Shown here: positions 7,988 to 57,193 of the stretch, one piece after another | How positions within the stretch are numbered: position 1 is the stretch's first letter | How the letters are laid out: the number at the start of each line of letters is the position of its first letter | The notes under the pieces: generated by a model | Told to the model about the DNA's origin: nothing | What the model saw: the letters and a program-made list of their open reading frames with translations, nothing else | Database searches by the model: none | Source: a virus | Length of the DNA: 64,000 nucleotides | Reading direction: 5' to 3' (one strand) | Virus record (IMG/VR): IMGVR_UViG_3300034358_000044 | Location: 1-64,000 of that record | Program-made: the position numbers and the translations under genes

Positions 7988-8793
7988 TTCATGGTCTTCG
8001 CGACAACGTGTTCCGTCCTGTGCTTCGCCTTCTCGAAGAGGTTGACGAAGCGCCCAGAGACGCTTTCCATGTCGGCCTTGACGAGCTCGATGGGTGGATC
8101 GAATCCGATGATGCGTCCTGTCTTGGGGCGGTTCCTGTGGAACTTCACGGAGAGCATCCTGGAGTAGCCTTCCATCTCCAGGATGGTGGTGATGGCTTCG
8201 CAGGCCTTTGGGTTCTGGGACAGGTCCTTCTTCACTTCGATCTTGGCGATTTCATCCGCCGTCTTGTCCCCCAGCTCCTCCTTGTTCATGGAGAGGACCC
8301 AGGTCTCATCCACCTTGACGTACGCGATGGCGTCCGTCTTCTTGATGAGGTTCTTGATGGCCATGGCCACCACGTCCTTGTAGTCCATCTTAGTTCGCTT
8401 GAGGACCACATCGAGGATGACCTCGTCCGGGTTGGGAGCTCTGAAGTCCCTCCCCTTCATCTGCAGGTGGGTGATGATCTTGTCCATCTCCGGACTGGCC
8501 TTCTTGAGGACGTCCAGAGCCTGCTCTGCACCCAGCACCATGTTGGTCATGACGATGATGGTGTCCCCAGGCTTCACCTTCTCGGAGTCGAGCGGTACTT
8601 CGTCGTCGAAGTTTCCTCCCAGGGTGGCGAAGGAGGCCTCGATGATGTCCTGGTCGATGTTCATCTTCTCGGTCATGAAGAAGGCCACCGGCTGAAGCTC
8701 TCCCTCCTCCCGGAGAATCTTCTTGGCGTTCTCCGTGACGCTGTCATGCCACTTCTTCATGTTCTCGATGGAGTATCTGTCATCGGTGTTCAT
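7984..8793 (-). CDS. Hypothetical protein
   Basis: 269 aa, strong codon bias. Confidence 0.85.
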   Translation of the reverse strand: MNTDDRYSIENMKKWHDSVTENAKKILREEGELQPVAFFMTEKMNIDQDIIEASFATLGGNFDDEVPLDSEKVKPGDTIIVMTNMVLGAEQALDVLKKASPEMDKIITHLQMKGRDFRAPNPDEVILDVVLKRTKMDYKDVVAMAIKNLIKKTDAIAYVKVDETWVLSMNKEELGDKTADEIAKIEVKKDLSQNPKACEAITTILEMEGYSRMLSVKFHRNRPKTGRIIGFDPPIELVKADMESVSGRFVNLFEKAKHRTEHVVAKTMN

Positions 8794-9337
8794 CAGGGCT
8801 CCTTGATTTCGCGTACTCTATGGCTACGAGATGCTTGCCGTAGAACATCTCCTCCCAGCTCGTCTGCAGCGCGTTTTCCAGCTTGGGAACCTGCATGTCA
8901 GTGGGCTTCAGTTCGAAGGGCCGCTGACGAGCTCCAGTGTTTCCGGTGTCCTCACACACCTCGCGCTTCTTGTAGCCGAACGGGAACTTGAAGTCCCTGA
9001 AGCAGAACAGGTGGTACTGGTTCGAAGTATCCACCAGTCTGGACTCGGCAGGGTAGAGCTCCACCGCCTCGAACTCCTCACCGACCAGCTCGTTCTTGAT
9101 TCTCTGGAAGTCTCTCCAGTCATGAACTGGAGCCTTGTCCCTGGTCTTGATGCTGAGGTGGATGCAGAGACCGAAGGGCGGTTGAATCTCGAAGAGCGTG
9201 AGATTCACCTGGTAGCGCGAGTTGATGAAGACGTCGATGTCGGGGAACTGCGGAATGCGCCCCCGTTCGAAAGACGTCCAGGGTTTTGTCTCTGCGACTG
9301 ACTTCTTGCGTTTCTCTTTGGTCTTCTTGCCGCTCAT
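8780..9337 (-). CDS. Conserved phage protein (HDWRDFQRIKNELVG...ELYPAESRLVD family)
   Basis: Motif recognised from many phage hypothetical proteins; function unknown. Confidence 0.8.
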   Translation of the reverse strand: MSGKKTKEKRKKSVAETKPWTSFERGRIPQFPDIDVFINSRYQVNLTLFEIQPPFGLCIHLSIKTRDKAPVHDWRDFQRIKNELVGEEFEAVELYPAESRLVDTSNQYHLFCFRDFKFPFGYKKREVCEDTGNTGARQRPFELKPTDMQVPKLENALQTSWEEMFYGKHLVAIEYAKSRSPDEHR

Positions 9338-9344
9338 GGGATTC

Positions 9345-9566
9345 CTAGATGTGGATGGCGTGGCCGCACCGGTTGCAGATGGCGCGGTCAGTTTCGGTGC
9401 GCTGGTTACGGCGATGAGGGCCTCCACTGCCGCACTCCGGGCAGGTGATGCGGATGTGCGTGGGCGGGTCGCCCTCGAATCCGACAGTGCCCTCGGAGAG
9501 CTTCTCCGTGTACGTCTGGAAGGCTTTGACCTTCTCCTTCACCGTGGGCTTCTTGATGTTGTTCAT
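9345..9566 (-). CDS. Zn-ribbon protein
   Basis: CPECG...CNRCG; GGAG RBS. Confidence 0.7.
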   Translation of the reverse strand: MNNIKKPTVKEKVKAFQTYTEKLSEGTVGFEGDPPTHIRITCPECGSGGPHRRNQRTETDRAICNRCGHAIHI

Positions 9567-9576
9567 GTCATCTCCT

Positions 9577-9777
9577 TCAGTCTTTGAGTGCTTCGAGGAC
9601 CTGCTCGACGAGGTCATCCCCATCGCAGCGGCACTCCTCACTTCCGTCCCGTTCCTCTGGAAGTTCACGGGCGCCGATGCAGCCTTCTTCGTGTAGCTGG
9701 TGCTTCCACTGACCGTCATCGTCGATGAAGAACAGGAGAGCCCTCTTCAGTTTCTTGACCTTCTGGTCAATCATCAC
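9577..9777 (-). CDS. Hypothetical protein
   Basis: 66 aa, ATGA overlap. Confidence 0.65.
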   Translation of the reverse strand: MMIDQKVKKLKRALLFFIDDDGQWKHQLHEEGCIGARELPEERDGSEECRCDGDDLVEQVLEALKD

Positions 9778-10037
9778 GCCTCCATACTCGTCATCTTCAT
9801 GGCTTCCCGAGCTCGGGCAATCCGAGCTCCGTGGTGCTGCACCAATGACTGGCGCATGGTGGTGTCTCCCAGTGGAAGATCCGCAATGAGCTTGTCGAAG
9901 TAGTCAATCTCCTCCTGCACCACTTTGCGCAGGAGGAGAACATCCCTCTGGTACTGTTTCAGCACATTCACGGTGATTCTCAGCTTCGAGTTCTCGCTGC
10001 AACCTTCGAGATCACGCTCGTTATACGGAATGCTCAT
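9774..10037 (-). CDS. Hypothetical coiled-coil protein
   Basis: 87 aa, operonic. Confidence 0.7.
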   Translation of the reverse strand: MSIPYNERDLEGCSENSKLRITVNVLKQYQRDVLLLRKVVQEEIDYFDKLIADLPLGDTTMRQSLVQHHGARIARAREAMKMTSMEA

Positions 10038-12145: not shown

Positions 12146-12360
12146 CGTGTACTCGGGGGTTGGGGGATCTTGATCGCCATCTCCAGGTCCGCGAGGGTAG
12201 CGGCCTTGGTCTTCATCACTTCCATCACTTGTGGGTTCGGGAAGCCGCCTGCGCGTTCCCAGAAGGACATCATCTGGGCGCCGATGCAGGCGGCATAGAC
12301 GGCGAGCCATTTCTCTTCAGTGACGTGATTCGCCTTGTTGACGCTCCAATTGGTCGTCAT
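12142..12360 (-). CDS. Hypothetical protein
   Basis: 72 aa, operonic. Confidence 0.7.
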   Translation of the reverse strand: MTTNWSVNKANHVTEEKWLAVYAACIGAQMMSFWERAGGFPNPQVMEVMKTKAATLADLEMAIKIPQPPSTR

Positions 12361-12363
12361 GGG

Positions 12364-12549
12364 CTAGTCCGCGTTGGCAGCGTCGATGCGGGCCTGGGCC
12401 TCATCATCGAACTCGTCCACCAGGTTCTCCAGCATCACCACGTAGTCGGACGAGGGGATGTCGTGGAGGAGTGTGTTGATGTCCTTCCAGAACTTCTCTC
12501 GCAGCTCGGTGACTTTCTTCTCCAGCTCTTTCTGCTTTGCCTTGTTCAC
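12364..12549 (-). CDS. Small acidic helical protein
   Basis: GGAGG RBS before GTG. Confidence 0.7.
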   Translation of the reverse strand: MNKAKQKELEKKVTELREKFWKDINTLLHDIPSSDYVVMLENLVDEFDDEAQARIDAANAD

Positions 12550-12565
12550 GTGTGCCTCCAATGAA

Positions 12566-12587
12566 AAGGGCTCCCGAAGGAGCCCTT
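12566..12587 (-). terminator. Rho-independent terminator with UUCG tetraloop
   Basis: AAGGGCTCC-TTCG-GGAGCCCTT followed by T tract on minus. Confidence 0.85.
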
Positions 12588-12611
12588 GGTAGAACGGAAT
12601 GTAGGCCTGAC

Positions 12612-12986
12612 TCAGACTCCGCCAGGGCCTGTTGCAGGGTACATCGCCCCGCCCTGACTGATGTTCGCGGTGGACTGTCCATCGACCGGGGACTGTGACC
12701 TGTCAGGGGAGGCTGCAGCAGCGCTCCCCTGGTCGTAGTCCCGAACGTTGCGCTTCCTGGGGTGGCCAGCAGGCAACCCGAAGAAGGCATTGGCCTTGGA
12801 GGCAGGAGTCTCCGACTGAGGCTGCTGCTTCTGGACGCCAGGCTGTCCGCCCTTCTGCCGCCAGTCAGGGTTCTTGTCCTGGTCATCCTGCGGAGGGATG
12901 GAGGCATTGGTGACCATCTGCGCATCTTGGGAGACGGCGATCTTCACCAGTTCATCTTGGAAAGCAGCGAGGGTGTACGGATTCAT
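12612..12986 (-). CDS. ELxKIA-leader protein, Gln/Pro-rich (putative virion internal protein)
   Basis: MNPYTLAAFQDELVKIA. Confidence 0.75.
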   Translation of the reverse strand: MNPYTLAAFQDELVKIAVSQDAQMVTNASIPPQDDQDKNPDWRQKGGQPGVQKQQPQSETPASKANAFFGLPAGHPRKRNVRDYDQGSAAAASPDRSQSPVDGQSTANISQGGAMYPATGPGGV

Positions 12987-13366
12987 CGTGCTCCTAGTCC
13001 GAGTAGCTTCTTGGCCTTGAGCTTGGCCGCATCCCCGTCTGCCATCTGGCGTACGGCCTTCTCACTCTCCCGCTTGATGCCGAACTTCCGTGCGGAGCTT
13101 CCCGAGAAGTACCCGTCCATGGTCTTGGCGGTATTGGGGAGCGTGTTCCTGTTCGACACCAGCGCCGCCACGTCGGGAACCTTGATGGCGGCGTCTGCAG
13201 CTCGGAGGCCCTTCACCTTCGACAGTGTCTTGGCCGCCTCCCTGCCGGCGTTGTGCGCCTTGAGGCGCTCTGCAGCGTAGCCCACTTGGGACATCATCGC
13301 CCCACGTGAGAGACGTGCAATCTTCTCCAACTCGTTGCTGAACGCAGCCATGGTCTGGGGATGCAT
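12983..13366 (-). CDS. ELxKIA-leader protein, Lys/Ala-rich (putative virion internal protein)
   Basis: MHPQTMAAFSNELEKIA. Confidence 0.75.
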   Translation of the reverse strand: MHPQTMAAFSNELEKIARLSRGAMMSQVGYAAERLKAHNAGREAAKTLSKVKGLRAADAAIKVPDVAALVSNRNTLPNTAKTMDGYFSGSSARKFGIKRESEKAVRQMADGDAAKLKAKKLLGLGAR

Positions 13367-28925: not shown

Positions 28926-29581
28926 GCAAGAAGACTCTCCAGTTCCAGCAGGCCCTGATGTCCACGGGACTGGTGCAGCCTCTCTCTGAGAAGTCCAAGG
29001 GCGGCCACATCGAGTTCCTCTGCCGCCAGGTGCCAGGCCAGGAGCGGGGCTGGCTCCAGGCAGTGGACGGCTTCCTGAAGTGTGAGGAGGAGCTGGCAGA
29101 CTCCCCCAAGCCCTTCACCCTCCATCTCTGCCGGCGCTACCTCCGCAGGGAGGGACAGATGGTCTTCGGCTGGCATGTCGGCATCGATGCCAAGTCCGCG
29201 AAAGACCTGGAGCTGGTGCTGGACACCCTCACCGTGGAGGTCTTGGAGGGGCTCAAGCCCTCCTTGGTGACGTCTCAAACCGGTCCAGTCGGCCCGCCAG
29301 AGCCGCCTGTAGCCGTCGCTGTGGCCCATCAGGAGCCCCTGTCGCCCGGCAGGCACCCTCCGCCGCGCCCGGCCACCCCACGGGCTCCCAACGCGCCAGG
29401 GACGGTCATCGGGACGCCTCCGCAGGACTTCTCTCCGACACTCCGGGTCGTGCAGAACTCCAGGGATGACCACGGCAAGGTGACCATCGTCGAGGAGATG
29501 CCCCTGCCCCACGTCTACTCCGACATGAACAAACCGAACGCGAAGGGCAGAGGCGCCAAGCTGACAGGAGGAGGTTCATGA
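28922..29581 (+). CDS. Hypothetical protein with Pro-rich linker
   Basis: MSKKTL start, ATGA overlap. Confidence 0.8.
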   Translation: MSKKTLQFQQALMSTGLVQPLSEKSKGGHIEFLCRQVPGQERGWLQAVDGFLKCEEELADSPKPFTLHLCRRYLRREGQMVFGWHVGIDAKSAKDLELVLDTLTVEVLEGLKPSLVTSQTGPVGPPEPPVAVAVAHQEPLSPGRHPPPRPATPRAPNAPGTVIGTPPQDFSPTLRVVQNSRDDHGKVTIVEEMPLPHVYSDMNKPNAKGRGAKLTGGGS

Positions 29582-30009
29582 AGAAGTTCCATCTGCAGAG
29601 GCTGGAAGACGAGTCGGGAGTCAGTGGTACAGGCTGGGTCGCTGAAGGGGTCGAGTTCGCCAACGGGAAGTGTGTCGTCTCCTGGCTGACGAAGTACACT
29701 TCGGTGGCGGTCTACGAGAACATGCTCTCGTTGGAGGCCATCCATGGTCACAACGGGAAGACCGTCGTTCGAAGAGACGGTGACGAGTACGCAGGACCCA
29801 ACTGCTTGGGCTGCCATCACCCTGTCGAATTCCACGACCTCGACAACTGCGGTGGCTGCAGCGTCGGAGTCTGCAACTGCAACCTGATGGAACACCCTGA
29901 GAGAGCCCCCAAGGAGGCCAAGCGTGTCACGCGAACAAGAGCAGCTCGACGACCAGCAGGAAAGAGTTCGAAAGCTACTTCAGAGTCCAGCGCTGCCGCT
30001 GGTCGGTGA
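29578..30009 (+). CDS. Conserved phage hypothetical protein (DESGVSGTG..AEGVEF family) with Cys/His cluster
   Basis: Recognisable widespread phage motif; GGAGG RBS. Confidence 0.75.
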   Translation: MKKFHLQRLEDESGVSGTGWVAEGVEFANGKCVVSWLTKYTSVAVYENMLSLEAIHGHNGKTVVRRDGDEYAGPNCLGCHHPVEFHDLDNCGGCSVGVCNCNLMEHPERAPKEAKRVTRTRAARRPAGKSSKATSESSAAAGR

Positions 30010-30715: not shown

Positions 30716-32095
30716 ATGGCTATCCCCATGACCATGTTCCGAGCCTTCGTGGACGAGCTCACCAAGATCGCTTCTACGAAGGAGGCCATGCATTGGACCA
30801 AGGACCTCGACCGGGACATCATGAACGGTCGGAAGTATCCAGGGAGCTACCTCACCGGAGAGTTGAAGGAGCTTGGGGAGGCCATCAAGGAGCGGAACTG
30901 GAACCACATCAAGGAAGAGGCAGGAGATTCCGCATACGCAGCTCAGATGATTGTTGGACAGCGCACCGGTCTCAACCTTCCAGTAGTGGGTGCTGATAGG
31001 GTCATCAAGAAGTTCTACGATCGTATTGGAACCTGGAAGAAGGCGTTCAAGGAACAAGACGTTCCATTCTCCCACGACTACCTTGCTGGGGGTAGCAACT
31101 ACGCCAAGCCGGAAAAGGTTCAAGCAGCTTTCGCGTTGGCGAATCACCACCTCTCCGATGATGAGGCTCGTCGAATCTCTCAGAGCCTTGTCGGCAAGGT
31201 GAAGACCTCTACGGTGGTGGCGCACATCGATGGTCCTATGGGTTCCGGGAAGACGACACTCATTCGGAAGATCGGCAAGGACTTCCCTGGGTTGGTAGTG
31301 AAAGACGTTGACGAGTTCAAGAGAGACGCCGCCCACATCGTCCGGCTAGAGCTTGGAGACCGTCCTCAAAACGCAGGCCCCAAGGACGACGAACTCTTCA
31401 AGCAGAAGGTCATGGCTATGCGCCAGAAGCTCACGGATGACTTCCTTGAGAAGCACAAGGACCGTCCCGTGGTGCTGGCAGGTATGAAGGTTGGTCTCAG
31501 CAAGTTCCCATTCGAGTTCCCAGAAGAAGGGCAGGCCAAGTACCGTCTCGACGACGTAGGCCCTCTTCGTTCGACCTACCGTGCCTACAAGAGGAACCTG
31601 GATCTCGACAAGCCGCGTCGATGGCCCCTCTCTGATACTCCTCGGCGCTACCGAGAAGCCAGAGAACACATCAAGCTCCTCGACAGCATGGGGTATAGAC
31701 CTGCATCCTCGAAGGCCATCATCGAGGAACTGGGGAAGGTGAAGACCTCTGCTCTCTCCAAGGCCCAGGCTCAGGAGCGGGTGGACATGCACCACCAGAC
31801 CCGCGACTGGAACCTCTTCGAGAAGAACCTGAAGGCCAAGGCCTTCCGGCAGGCAGTGGTCTCTCATCCAGAGTCCGACGCCAAGCTGAAGCGCTACACG
31901 AAGAACTTCGGAGAGTACACCAGCTCCAAGAAGGTGCTTGGTGTGGTGCCGAGTCGGACCAGCAACAAGCTGTACAAAATCAAAGAGCTCTCCAACGGTC
32001 GGCTGGCCTGTGGATGTGGGGACTGGCAATATCTCCACTCACACAAGAAGACGGACTGCGACCACATCAAGGAATTCAAGGGGGGATTGTCATGA
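30716..32095 (+). CDS. ELxKIA-leader multidomain protein: MazG-like + P-loop kinase + SWIM Zn finger
   Basis: FVDELTKIA; ELKELGEAI...KEEAGD; GPMGSGKTT; CGCGDW...CDH; two GKVKTS linkers. Confidence 0.8.
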   Translation: MAIPMTMFRAFVDELTKIASTKEAMHWTKDLDRDIMNGRKYPGSYLTGELKELGEAIKERNWNHIKEEAGDSAYAAQMIVGQRTGLNLPVVGADRVIKKFYDRIGTWKKAFKEQDVPFSHDYLAGGSNYAKPEKVQAAFALANHHLSDDEARRISQSLVGKVKTSTVVAHIDGPMGSGKTTLIRKIGKDFPGLVVKDVDEFKRDAAHIVRLELGDRPQNAGPKDDELFKQKVMAMRQKLTDDFLEKHKDRPVVLAGMKVGLSKFPFEFPEEGQAKYRLDDVGPLRSTYRAYKRNLDLDKPRRWPLSDTPRRYREAREHIKLLDSMGYRPASSKAIIEELGKVKTSALSKAQAQERVDMHHQTRDWNLFEKNLKAKAFRQAVVSHPESDAKLKRYTKNFGEYTSSKKVLGVVPSRTSNKLYKIKELSNGRLACGCGDWQYLHSHKKTDCDHIKEFKGGLS

Positions 32096-32691
32096 TGGAG
32101 AAGGAGGCCAGGGAGCAGGACCCGGAGCTCAACAAGGCCAAGGCTGAACGAGATGCCCAGGCAGGCCTTCGTCTTCATCTGAACATCGACGACATCCGCC
32201 AGAAGGCGTTGGAGATGGCCGTCCACATCCTTGCCGAGTTCAAGGGGTGGCCTACTGTCGTCGTCACTGGCGGTGCAGGCTCAGGGAAGACGACCTTCTC
32301 CAAGGAGATGGCCATCTTCCTCGGAGTGAAGCATCTCGACTTCGACACCTACATTCCCGGGGGCTACACGCCCGACAAGAACGAGTACGAGCGCCGCTTC
32401 AACAAGGGACTCTACGAGATGTGGGAGGATGTCCCTCCGAAGCAGGGGTGGGTCATCGAGCACGTCGAGAGCTGCAATGAGGACTTGGTTGGGCTCTACC
32501 GCCCTGAGTACGCCATCCTCCTAGATCCGGGGGAAGAATGGTTGAGCAAAGCGGTAGAGGCCCGAGGAAACCGTAATGGTCTTTCTCGCGCCCTGCAATC
32601 GTCTTCAACAGCCCGTTCTCAATTCAGAGAGCTGTCAGGAGAGGTGGTAGCAAAGCTACACGGCCTCACCCTCAAGAAGCTTGAGAGCTAA
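32092..32691 (+). CDS. P-loop nucleotide/NMP kinase-like protein
   Basis: VVVTGGAGSGKTTFS...LGVKHLDFD. Confidence 0.8.
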   Translation: MMEKEAREQDPELNKAKAERDAQAGLRLHLNIDDIRQKALEMAVHILAEFKGWPTVVVTGGAGSGKTTFSKEMAIFLGVKHLDFDTYIPGGYTPDKNEYERRFNKGLYEMWEDVPPKQGWVIEHVESCNEDLVGLYRPEYAILLDPGEEWLSKAVEARGNRNGLSRALQSSSTARSQFRELSGEVVAKLHGLTLKKLES

Positions 32692-55499: not shown

Positions 55500-56186
55500 A
55501 TGGACTGGGCTGGAATTCGGGCTGGTCTTCAGGACGAGCTGGAGAAGATCGCTGCCTTCAGCTTGCAGGGACTGTCACCAGAGACGGTGATGGAGAAGAG
55601 TATCCCTCCTCCACCAATGGAGACTCCTGGTTTCAGCAAGGCTCGTGACATTCTTGAGCGAGCTTCTCAAGCCCAGGTGAAGACTGCGGCGAAGGCCTCA
55701 AAGTCTTCGAAGAAGGTACAGCAGGCCCTTCCCCAGCAGCTCGGTCTTGGCAAGATGGTGAACCAGGGGGATGATTCCCTCAACGAGAAGGCCAAGAGTG
55801 TTGCTGGGTACGGCTTGGCCGGTCTTGGTACTGGAGGGGCTCTTCATAAGGCCTACTCTTCGATTCCCAGTGTCCACGAGTCTGTCCGCCATCACTCCAT
55901 CAAGGACGAAGCAAAGTGGTTGGCCGAAGCGAAGCTGAACAACATCGGAAACAAGTTGATGGTCGGTGGGGCTCTCGTTGGCCTCGGCTATGGGGCCAAT
56001 CGTCTTCGTCAGAAGGCCAAGGCAAAGACCGGTACCATCACCAAGACCGCAACCCTGACGACTCCTGGGCAGTCACTGAAGGCTTCCAAGCAGGTGGGAA
56101 GCCTTAAGACCGCCCCAAGTTTGGCGGGACCAAGTACGACCTCACAGATTCGTGGTCAATTCATCGGCAAGAAGGGTATCCCATGA
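55500..56186 (+). CDS. ELxKIA-leader protein with glycine-zipper segments
   Basis: GLQDELEKIA; GYGLAGLGTGG; VGGALVGLGYG. Confidence 0.8.
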   Translation: MDWAGIRAGLQDELEKIAAFSLQGLSPETVMEKSIPPPPMETPGFSKARDILERASQAQVKTAAKASKSSKKVQQALPQQLGLGKMVNQGDDSLNEKAKSVAGYGLAGLGTGGALHKAYSSIPSVHESVRHHSIKDEAKWLAEAKLNNIGNKLMVGGALVGLGYGANRLRQKAKAKTGTITKTATLTTPGQSLKASKQVGSLKTAPSLAGPSTTSQIRGQFIGKKGIP

Positions 56187-57193
56187 AAAAGAAGATTGCA
56201 GTTGGAAACGGTGGGGAAGAGGAGCTGGAGCAGCTTCAGCGAATCGTCCTGACCCGCAACGACACCCGTGCTGCTGCCGATGTACTCTTCGGTGCTCCTG
56301 CCGCTGCTGCCAGGAAGGTGGACAGGGGGCTGCTGGAGAAGCTCTTCGTTCAGACGCCGGCTGCGGTGGTCATGGCGCCCAATCTCCAGAAGACCAGTGC
56401 GGTCCACGAGAAGATCGCCCGAGTCTTTGGGGAGTCACCCCCAGGCAACTCGATCGAGGGGGAGATTCCGTATCACGTTCGGAGGAAGGAGTACGAGTCC
56501 TACGCCAACAAGAAGTCCAGGGAGGCGCCGACTCCCTACAGCACGTCGGTTCCAACTGGGGCGCTGGTAGGCGGTCTCGGAGGGGCGGCGGTAGGTGCTG
56601 GGCACGCGGGTGTTCGCGGAGCTGCCATCGGCGGTCTCGGTGGGGCACTACTCGGCGGCCTGACTGGGGCAGGCCTGAGCGCCTCGGACAAGGCGCACAT
56701 CGAGTCCGCGAAGAAGGCCATCAAGTCCAGAGAGAACTTGGACAGTGCCTTGGCCGGGCACATTCATGCGGTCAAGCAGCATGCCCGGACGACCGAGGCA
56801 ATGGAGAGGGCCTCTGAGCGCATGTCGGCTGAGAGGAGGCACCAGGACACCATGTCCGCTCTGGGCGGTCTTGCAGATCGGGGACCGAGAGAGGTCAACG
56901 TCAATCACCACTACGAGGCCAAGAAGACCTCTGGGAAGTGCCTCAACTGCGGAGCTCCTGCTACTGGGGGCCTCTGCGAGTACTGCGGAGCGAACGACTT
57001 CTCCAAGACCTCTCATGTGGCCGCCTTCTTCGAGAAGCTGTCAGCTCCAACTGAAGCCCAGCAGCGGTACCCCGAGCTCCTGAAGGCTGCGGAGATGGAC
57101 ACCAAGAAGGTGCTCTCCATCAAGCCTCGGGTGACCACGGACACGACGGGTACTACCCCCACTCGGTCGTCTCTTTCTGGTGGAAGCGCGTAG
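56183..57193 (+). CDS. Glycine-zipper protein with Zn ribbon and KIA/KTS motifs
   Basis: MKKKIA, QKTSAVHEKIA, GGLGGAAVGAG...GGLTGAG, CLNCG...CEYCG. Confidence 0.8.
   Translation: MKKKIAVGNGGEEELEQLQRIVLTRNDTRAAADVLFGAPAAAARKVDRGLLEKLFVQTPAAVVMAPNLQKTSAVHEKIARVFGESPPGNSIEGEIPYHVRRKEYESYANKKSREAPTPYSTSVPTGALVGGLGGAAVGAGHAGVRGAAIGGLGGALLGGLTGAGLSASDKAHIESAKKAIKSRENLDSALAGHIHAVKQHARTTEAMERASERMSAERRHQDTMSALGGLADRGPREVNVNHHYEAKKTSGKCLNCGAPATGGLCEYCGANDFSKTSHVAAFFEKLSAPTEAQQRYPELLKAAEMDTKKVLSIKPRVTTDTTGTTPTRSSLSGGSA

Follow-up and report, generated by a model that had tools for sequence, protein, structure and literature searches.

Leader-derived linkers in a three-module phage polyprotein point to a possible capsid cargo with a cleavage code of its own

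Introduction

The head protease of phage T4 cuts after (Leu/Ile)-x-Glu. In the same phage, a capsid targeting sequence (CTS) is found on the internal proteins IPI-III and on Alt and is removed by the prohead protease gp21 (Mullaney & Black 1996, cited in PMC10052503; reviewed in PMC3012670 and PMC9026906). Head proteins of SPN3US, through its protease gp245, and of phiKZ-like phages are cut after A-x-E (PMC10052503, PMC5694885), and in SPN3US all identified cuts besides the self-cleavage of the protease yield N-terminal propeptides, not separated enzyme modules (PMC10052503). The polyvalent proteins of phages and conjugative elements are of another kind and combine two to 15 unrelated domains in one polypeptide (Iyer, Burroughs, Anand, de Souza and Aravind 2017, PMC5512222). 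They were defined around MuF, MPTase peptidases, ADP-ribosyltransferases (ARTs) and a truncated protein-kinase domain, and undergo autoproteolysis through a peptidase in the chain; it was proposed that they enter together with the DNA and are at times processed (PMC5512222). Here we analysed an open reading frame (ORF) at positions 30716-32095 of a 64-kb stretch of viral DNA (hereafter the window), which is the first 64 kb of the 195,735-bp IMG/VR virus record IMGVR_UViG_3300034358_000044 (58.6% G+C; CheckV completeness 100%). The product of this ORF, labelled P0001, is a polyprotein that carries an N-terminal leader and three modules joined by two identical hexapeptides.

We propose, at about an even chance of being right, that this polyprotein is packaged into the capsid as cargo and cut there by the head protease, with a logic like that of T4 and a different code. 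The genome is that of a tailed phage, with a large terminase, a capsid protein, a class II ribonucleotide reductase, a ligase and helicases. In the phage collection, its cultured relatives are limited to Salmonella phage Arash and the Vibrio phages D69, D148 and D181, at a capsid-protein identity of 29-31%.

Results and discussion

Three mobile modules joined by identical hexapeptides

The ORF (30716..32095, + strand) is open over 459 amino acids (aa), and its G+C content at third codon positions (GC3, 0.72) matches the coding signature of the genome. In order, the polyprotein comprises a DELTKIA leader, the MazG-like module A, the hexapeptide GKVKTS, module B with a P-loop kinase fold, a second GKVKTS and module C with a SWIM zinc finger. 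The leader, MAIPMTMFRAFVDELTKIA (30716..30772, +; aa 1-19), has the core D13-E-L-T-K-I-A19 (..FVDELTKIA at aa 11-19) and ends in Lys17-Ile-Ala19, with Ser20 as the next residue. A second Lys-x-Ala site, S20-T-K-E-A24 and then M25 (30773..30787, +), follows at once, so that K22-E-A24 stands directly before the MazG module; relatives carry KEA or KKA-EY at the matching position ahead of module A. Module A occupies 30788..31192 (+; aa 25-159). Linker 1, GKVKTS (31193..31210, +; aa 160-165), with a predicted cut after Lys-Thr-Ser, forms the border to module B (31211..31732, +; aa 166-339), in which the Walker A sequence GPMGSGKTT lies at aa 173-181. Linker 2, again GKVKTS (31733..31750, +; aa 340-345), is the end of an internalised leader, AIIEELGKVKTS, and precedes module C (31751..32092, +), a helical domain plus a SWIM-type zinc finger whose residues C432, C434, C448 and H450 fall within nucleotides (nt) 32009-32065. 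The leader, the MazG motif, both linkers, the P-loop and the SWIM finger had been recognised in the original prediction, which was made from the letters of the window, and each of them was indeed found at its place in the ORF. None of the six frames of the window encodes GKVKTS anywhere else, and a repeated hexapeptide appeared in 0.5% of shuffles of the polyprotein.

When 1.84 billion representative proteins were searched exhaustively with HMMER, 517 relatives of the polyprotein were returned. Among the matches listed, each covers one stretch only (query 12/25-151/166, 159/164-333/350 or 323/361-452/458). Because the relatives match single stretches only, the two hexapeptides lie on the borders of three evolutionary units, and the earlier claim that the linkers sit at domain boundaries holds, with the borders of the three HMMER homology classes coinciding with the linkers and linker 1 separating classes A and B. 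Variation of domain order in homologues had been suggested as a check; when run, it showed that both order and content differ widely among the relatives, and the A-B-C order was absent from all other relatives among the matches listed. Each module was also found free-standing in other phage sequences, with an N-terminal leader of the type M..LLPSFxDELxKIA, and inside other polyproteins of up to 1853 aa, in other orders and with other partners. These comparisons support a view of the polyprotein as three modules, each mobile on its own, that are strung together by linkers at true domain borders. Other searches gave negative results: tblastn with the whole polyprotein against 50,697 phage records produced no match, a word-based search with module B alone returned nothing beyond the window's own fragment, and scans of viral contigs with the relatives P0017 and P0003 found nothing.

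The partner modules in the relatives are nucleotide-directed enzymes, namely NUDIX, a 2H phosphoesterase and an Acb1-like domain. In G+C-poor relatives, the MazG module belongs to polyproteins of 341-1449 aa whose modules are split by ..VSKLA followed by G, S or A. The metagenomic relative P0029 (891 aa) combines module B, module A and a C-terminal 2H phosphoesterase, which matches Pfam Acb1, a family directed against the cyclic-oligonucleotide-based antiphage signaling system (CBASS), at 32.8 bits (cut-off 27); the junctions of this protein read K-K-A, K-S-A and K-V-A.

Chains with reiterated tags were also seen in other contigs. A 1893-aa carrier of module C in another viral contig (L047:21-5702, +) starts with MGKEKTA/LNER (here and below, a slash marks a putative cutting point), and ..GLEKTA/LNER is met again at residue 1050, the N-terminal tag being reiterated inside the giant chain. 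The 728-aa polyprotein at L009:10001-12187 (a weak 2H-SAK-like match, an unknown module, NUDIX and DUF4269) has linkers of VSKLA followed by G, S or A, and its neighbours at 8709-9997 and 12198-13301 start with MNRLEKAAAFGAMMGKLAAG and MRSFNKLAN, which belong to the same tag family.

Linkers as internalised leaders

In a MAFFT alignment, the linker-2 stretch of the polyprotein, AIIEELGKVKTSA, fell column for column under the leaders (..SFxDELxKIA) of 17 free-standing module C proteins. A free-standing module C reads MLQSLLPSFCDELIKLA/ALSPAQAR where the window has AIIEELGKVKTS/ALSKAQAQ. For module B, free-standing proteins start with ..AFFDEMEKCA/RVIGHIAG or ..LPKIA/GVIAHIAG, and MLDSATVSAFFDEMEKCA/RVIGHIAG in a free-standing copy corresponds to SLVGKVKTS/TVVAHIDG in the window. 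The leader of the polyprotein itself lined up with the leaders and linkers of homologues, and the VSKLA linker of the G+C-poor relatives aligned with its N-terminal ELTKIAS. Since linker 2 aligns with free-standing leaders, the linkers are internalised leaders that end in Lys-x-(Ala/Ser); their homology to the N-terminal leader of free-standing module copies is thus supported at the level of aligned columns.

The position of the motif relative to the modules was similar throughout the family. Counted from the module start, a K-x-[A/S] end fell between -14 and +4 residues in 92% of the homologues for module A, 100% for module B and 90% for module C, compared with 23-33% when the same measure was taken at random positions of those homologues. 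In the internal VSKLA linkers of the relatives, the residues are kept and the codons vary, and a peptide kept through synonymous drift indicates that selection acts on the linker peptide in general. VKTS also ends modules in the unrelated relatives P0095, P0134 and P0159. In AlphaFold2 (AF2) models, linker 1 is a coil with a predicted local distance difference test score (pLDDT) of about 50 (model of module B), and linker 2 has a pLDDT <50 (model of module C), both of them outside the compact domains; as low-confidence coil in such places, they would therefore be accessible to a protease. A possible covariation of the middle residue with the genome (K-L-A in relatives of 44% G+C, K-T-A or K-I-A here) was also considered and was judged no more than suggestive, since a wide choice of residues fills this position in both genomes.

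A shared motif in head-assembly proteins

In four head-module proteins of this genome, the motif K[TIVLME][AS] has a density of 2.01 per 100 aa, versus 0.32 in the rest of the proteome (about 6-fold). Twelve such sites, against 2.7 expected, are found in the 536-aa product of genome 147148-148758 (L006:3148-4758), and another 12, against 2.6 expected, in the 347-aa protein before it. The capsid protein starts with ..LFFEKIG/SAEGKDKIA/E. In a distant relative, the proteins around the protease and capsid genes are likewise dense in K-x-A. The 536-aa product is probably the prohead protease of the phage: its N-terminal part matches phrog_18299, a head-maturation protease PHROG, at 1.3e-7, and a language-model lead named Peptidase_S77/S78 at 0.90-0.91. 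It has a long C-terminal extension with six K-T-A sites (EKTA/G, DKTA/K, QKTA/S, HKTA/S and SKTA/S among them). The layout of this product resembles that of protease-scaffold fusions. Because the tags between the modules match the signal on these head-assembly proteins, loading of the polyprotein into the head and its cutting in three appear probable.

The sequence of events that we infer is the following. Three formerly separate leader-bearing genes (MazG-like, NMP-kinase-fold and SWIM, where NMP stands for nucleoside monophosphate) would have fused head to tail, and at each fusion the last part of the leader of the downstream gene would have stayed behind as a linker inside the chain. The Lys-x-(Ala/Ser) ending would be the sequence recognised by the prohead protease of this phage, presumably the product of genome 147148-148758. 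The leader would bring the polyprotein into the assembling head, the head protease would cut after A19 and/or A24, S165 and S345, and the three released small proteins would exit together with the DNA, to act on nucleotides at an early stage of infection. The original prediction had described a cleavable cargo polyprotein that delivers nucleotide-metabolising anti-defence enzymes at injection. This stands in part, namely for the mobile modules, for linkers homologous to the leader and for a motif enriched in head-assembly proteins, while packaging, cleavage, ejection and the enzymatic targets of the polyprotein are what we infer from these. A role against nucleotide-based defence is a guess, drawn from the identities of the modules and from the Acb1-like fusion in P0029.

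Several findings weigh against such a course of events. Pfam and PDB sequence searches with the N-terminal 261 aa of the probable protease gave no match, and the protease call consists of one PHROG match, the gene position and the language-model lead. K-x-[A/S] is a short motif, in which P0001 overall is not enriched (4 observed, 2.4 expected), and the linkers read K-V-K-T-S, ending in Ser, unlike the K-I-A of the leader. The polyprotein gene lies far from the head genes. In the virion proteome of Arash (PMC10585845), a list of 116 proteins that may include contaminants, a dNMP kinase and pyrophosphohydrolases are present, all without the leader, and this proteome was dropped as support for that reason. 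Finally, a MazG protein and an NMP-type kinase would also make sense together as a cytoplasmic nucleotide-pool pathway.

Predicted identities of the modules

The MazG motif of module A, ELKELGEAI...KEEAGD, corresponds to aa 49-71 of the polyprotein. The match of this module to Pfam MazG reached 23.5 bits at a cut-off of 22, a small margin, and covered aa 44-73 only. Across 19 homologues of module A, the residues E49, E52, E68 and D71, which form the acidic metal-binding pattern ExxE...ExxD, were invariant, and the family profile matched solved MazG proteins, with values of 1.8e-7 for the MazG-related 2yxh and 3.7e-7 for E. coli MazG (3cra). Module A is accordingly listed here as a predicted MazG-like nucleoside triphosphate (NTP) pyrophosphohydrolase of the all-alpha class.

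As modelled with AF2 (pLDDT 83), module B has an NMP-type kinase fold. Foldseek placed the model beside adenylate kinase 3adk (1.5e-5) and beside UMP/CMP, dephospho-CoA and shikimate kinases, with template modelling (TM) scores of 0.5-0.6. In Pfam, no family reached the cut-off for this module, and the sub-threshold matches (TsaE, cobW, AAA_18, dNK) were P-loop families only; profile matches in the PDB were confined to the P-loop.

Module C consists of a helical domain followed by a beta-beta-alpha finger (AF2, pLDDT 89.6). The finger, C432-x-C434-x13-C448-x-H450, has the SWIM pattern CxCxnCxH, and in 18 module C homologues C, C, W, S, C and H were invariant. Pfam SWIM matched 13 of the 18 family members (best 1.2e-5) and gave no match with the window's own copy; part of the Atlas neighbours of the module are labelled SWIM. 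Searches of solved structures with the whole module gave no Foldseek hit at E <=0.001 and a best VIA-align Z of 4.1, which is no proof of a new fold.

Other readings of the leader and linkers

With these identities in hand, the polyprotein might instead be an uncut, multidomain cytoplasmic enzyme of the nucleotide pool, its linkers being relics of gene fusion that now serve as flexible spacers. T4 pairs its dCTPase gp56 with the dNMP kinase gp1, and the MazG-like and kinase-fold characters of modules A and B would suit an arrangement of this sort, as would the repeated company of MazG and AAA_18-type kinase modules in relatives (P0029, P0053, P0060), the distance of the gene from the head genes and the lack of K-x-[A/S] enrichment in P0001 itself. 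However, the genome already has a canonical dNMP-kinase-like gene and a ThyX-like gene in its replication block (as judged from N-terminal sequences only), and the same modules occur with unrelated partners in any order, unlike the members of a fixed pathway. Moreover, the internal linkers of relatives are conserved as peptide under synonymous drift, and the N-terminal leader is common to unrelated proteins. We therefore hold an uncut enzyme to be unlikely, if a serious candidate.

The leader and linkers could also be real signals that are not read by the head protease, either as a docking helix for a different structure or compartment or as a site for another phage or host cytoplasmic peptidase, so that the modules would be released or localised without packaging. 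With its roughly 17 residues of conserved hydrophobic-acidic-K-I-A character, the whole leader exceeds the length of a cleavage site, and the assignment of the protease is weak, both of which leave room for this explanation. What speaks against it is the concentration of the motif in the head module, that is in the protease, the scaffold-like proteins and the N-terminus of the capsid protein, and the recurrence of K-x-A density around the protease and capsid genes in the distant relative. Taken together, we regard a signal unconnected with the head protease as quite improbable, and return to cutting by the head protease in what follows.

A 15-mer shared by the linkers and a head gene

The two linkers had been reported to share 15 identical nt, and they do so as the exact 15-mer AAGGTGAAGACCTCT, with 17/18 nt identical over the whole linkers. 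This is the only 15-mer with at least three copies on either strand of the 196-kb genome. Its copies lie at window 31196-31210 and 31736-31750 and at genome 145635-145649 (L006:1635-1649), all in frame as KVKTS, and the third stands in the 347-aa head-module protein in the context ..LPQKVKTS/SAE. Given identical residues and the codon usage of the genome, identical KVKTS codons are expected with P about 0.016 for two copies and, by a hand estimate with the same codon table, P about 4e-4 for three. The identity of the linker DNA at this locus most likely records recent copying.

Module B and one linker lie between direct repeats of the 15-mer exactly 540 nt apart, and at this spacing a recombination event that removed or added the cassette would keep the reading frame. 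Exact 15-nt repeats around module B also fit the earlier suggestion that the polyprotein grew by insertion of linker-flanked modules. An internal translation start at linker 1 (AAGGTGA, then GTG) was rejected as a general reading, the other two copies being without a start codon. It is very improbable that the 15-mer serves first of all as a nucleic-acid element (a ribosome-binding site AAGGTGA inside the gene, a site of RNA processing or one of recombination), with its peptide identity secondary: its standing as the sole 15-mer that reaches three copies in the whole genome, a codon identity beyond expectation and an in-frame GTG GTG 11 nt after linker 1 would agree with it, but no start codon lies downstream of the other two copies, all three are in frame as KVKTS, relatives keep linker peptides and not linker DNA, VKTS ends modules in the unrelated relatives named above, and a role in recombination microhomology is compatible with a peptide tag for capsid cargo rather than its rival.

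Such a double role can be imagined. The tag may be both a peptide address or cutting site for capsid cargo and a DNA microhomology for in-frame exchange of cassettes, which would give a combinatorial plug-in system for injected nucleotide-directed counter-defence enzymes (MazG, kinases, NUDIX, Acb1-like); we offer this as a speculative and rather unlikely extension of the packaging proposal.

Neighbouring genes and other carriers of the leader

In this genome the leader [AF]x DELxKIA stands at the N-terminus of five genes and is shared by unrelated proteins. Leader-bearing genes in the window include 12612..12986 (-), starting MNPYTLAAFQDELVKIAV.., and 55500..56186 (+), starting MDWAGIRAGLQDELEKIAAF... 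The ORF at 56183-57193 encodes 336 aa with 6 K[TIVLME][AS] sites against 1.7 expected (0.7% of shuffles) and has a sub-threshold YidB-like match; it may be more cargo because it lies directly after the leader-bearing gene 55500-56186.

A second kinase gene had been noted directly downstream of the polyprotein, and a P-loop kinase-like gene does adjoin it there (32092..32691, +; 199 aa), its start overlapping the stop codon of the polyprotein as ATGA. The protein begins with MMEKEA, a short Lys-Glu-Ala tag, and in relatives module A is usually followed by the junction 'GGKMEKEA'. From its sequence, the gene looks to be one lost stop codon away from a fourth module. Module B was rejected as a close paralogue of this gene, the similarity being limited to the P-loop. 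Two genes upstream of the polyprotein, a small ORF (29578-30009) matches phrog_7499 with its N-terminal 65 aa at 1.7e-25.

Comparison with known systems

Phage members of the MazG and all-alpha NTP pyrophosphohydrolases include cyanophage MazG and the T4 dCTPase gp56. With MazG proteins (E. coli MazG, 3cra; 2yxh), module A shares profile similarity and the four acidic metal-binding residues. It differs from them in an extra conserved C-terminal half (R, G-x-N and K invariant), which lies outside the matches, and in being preceded by a leader.

Herpesvirus assemblin (S21) has maturation and release sites of the form (V/L/I)-x-Ala-Ser, cut between Ala and Ser, and no Lys requirement is known for this enzyme. 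The cut after an Ala that is followed by Ser is similar to the one proposed here, as is the fusion of the protease to a scaffold-like C-terminal part with sites of its own, which is also the arrangement of the product of genome 147148-148758. With SPN3US and the phiKZ-like phages, the likeness would lie in a single prohead protease that processes numerous internal head (ejection) proteins, in the shortness of its motif and in the presence of multiple motif copies within propeptides; the motif there is A-x-E, not Lys-x-Ala/Ser.

With polyvalent proteins, the polyprotein has in common several unrelated domains and rapid shuffling (three modules here, relatives of up to 1853 aa). Pfam found none of their signature domains (MuF, MPTase or another in-chain peptidase, ART) in P0001, which, without a peptidase domain, would depend on the head protease in trans. 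The description of polyvalent proteins makes no mention of MazG, names SWIM once and gives no regular linker code (PMC5512222).

In the literature searched, we found no description of cargo polyproteins linked by Lys-x-Ala. The present case adds the column-level alignment of linkers with leaders, the 15-mer whose three copies connect the linkers with a head gene, and a relative in which an Acb1-like domain is the partner. Provided that the tags are cut, a phage clade that includes Arash, D69, D148 and D181 would load enzymes into the capsid as polyproteins, to be released by the head protease. Dozens of unknown small modules would then be marked as probable first-minute effectors, some of them beside Acb1-like and NUDIX counter-defence domains, and a portable tag would be at hand for packaging foreign proteins into large phage heads.

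The closest likeness in logic is to the CTS of T4. As there, a short N-terminal peptide is common to unrelated proteins of one phage (five ..DELxKIA genes here), the tag ends in a motif that in our case is also the putative site of the head protease, and the cargo would be enzymes or effectors thought to leave with the DNA. The (L/I)-x-E code of T4 is not seen in the polyprotein, where the leader ends in K-I-A and the linkers in K-T-S. T4 cargo, moreover, comes as single units, whereas the tag is repeated here inside one chain, apparently as beads on a string. If the proposal is true, the capsid-targeting principle of T4 would also operate with a new cleavage code, and on cargo that is modular and rapidly shuffled.

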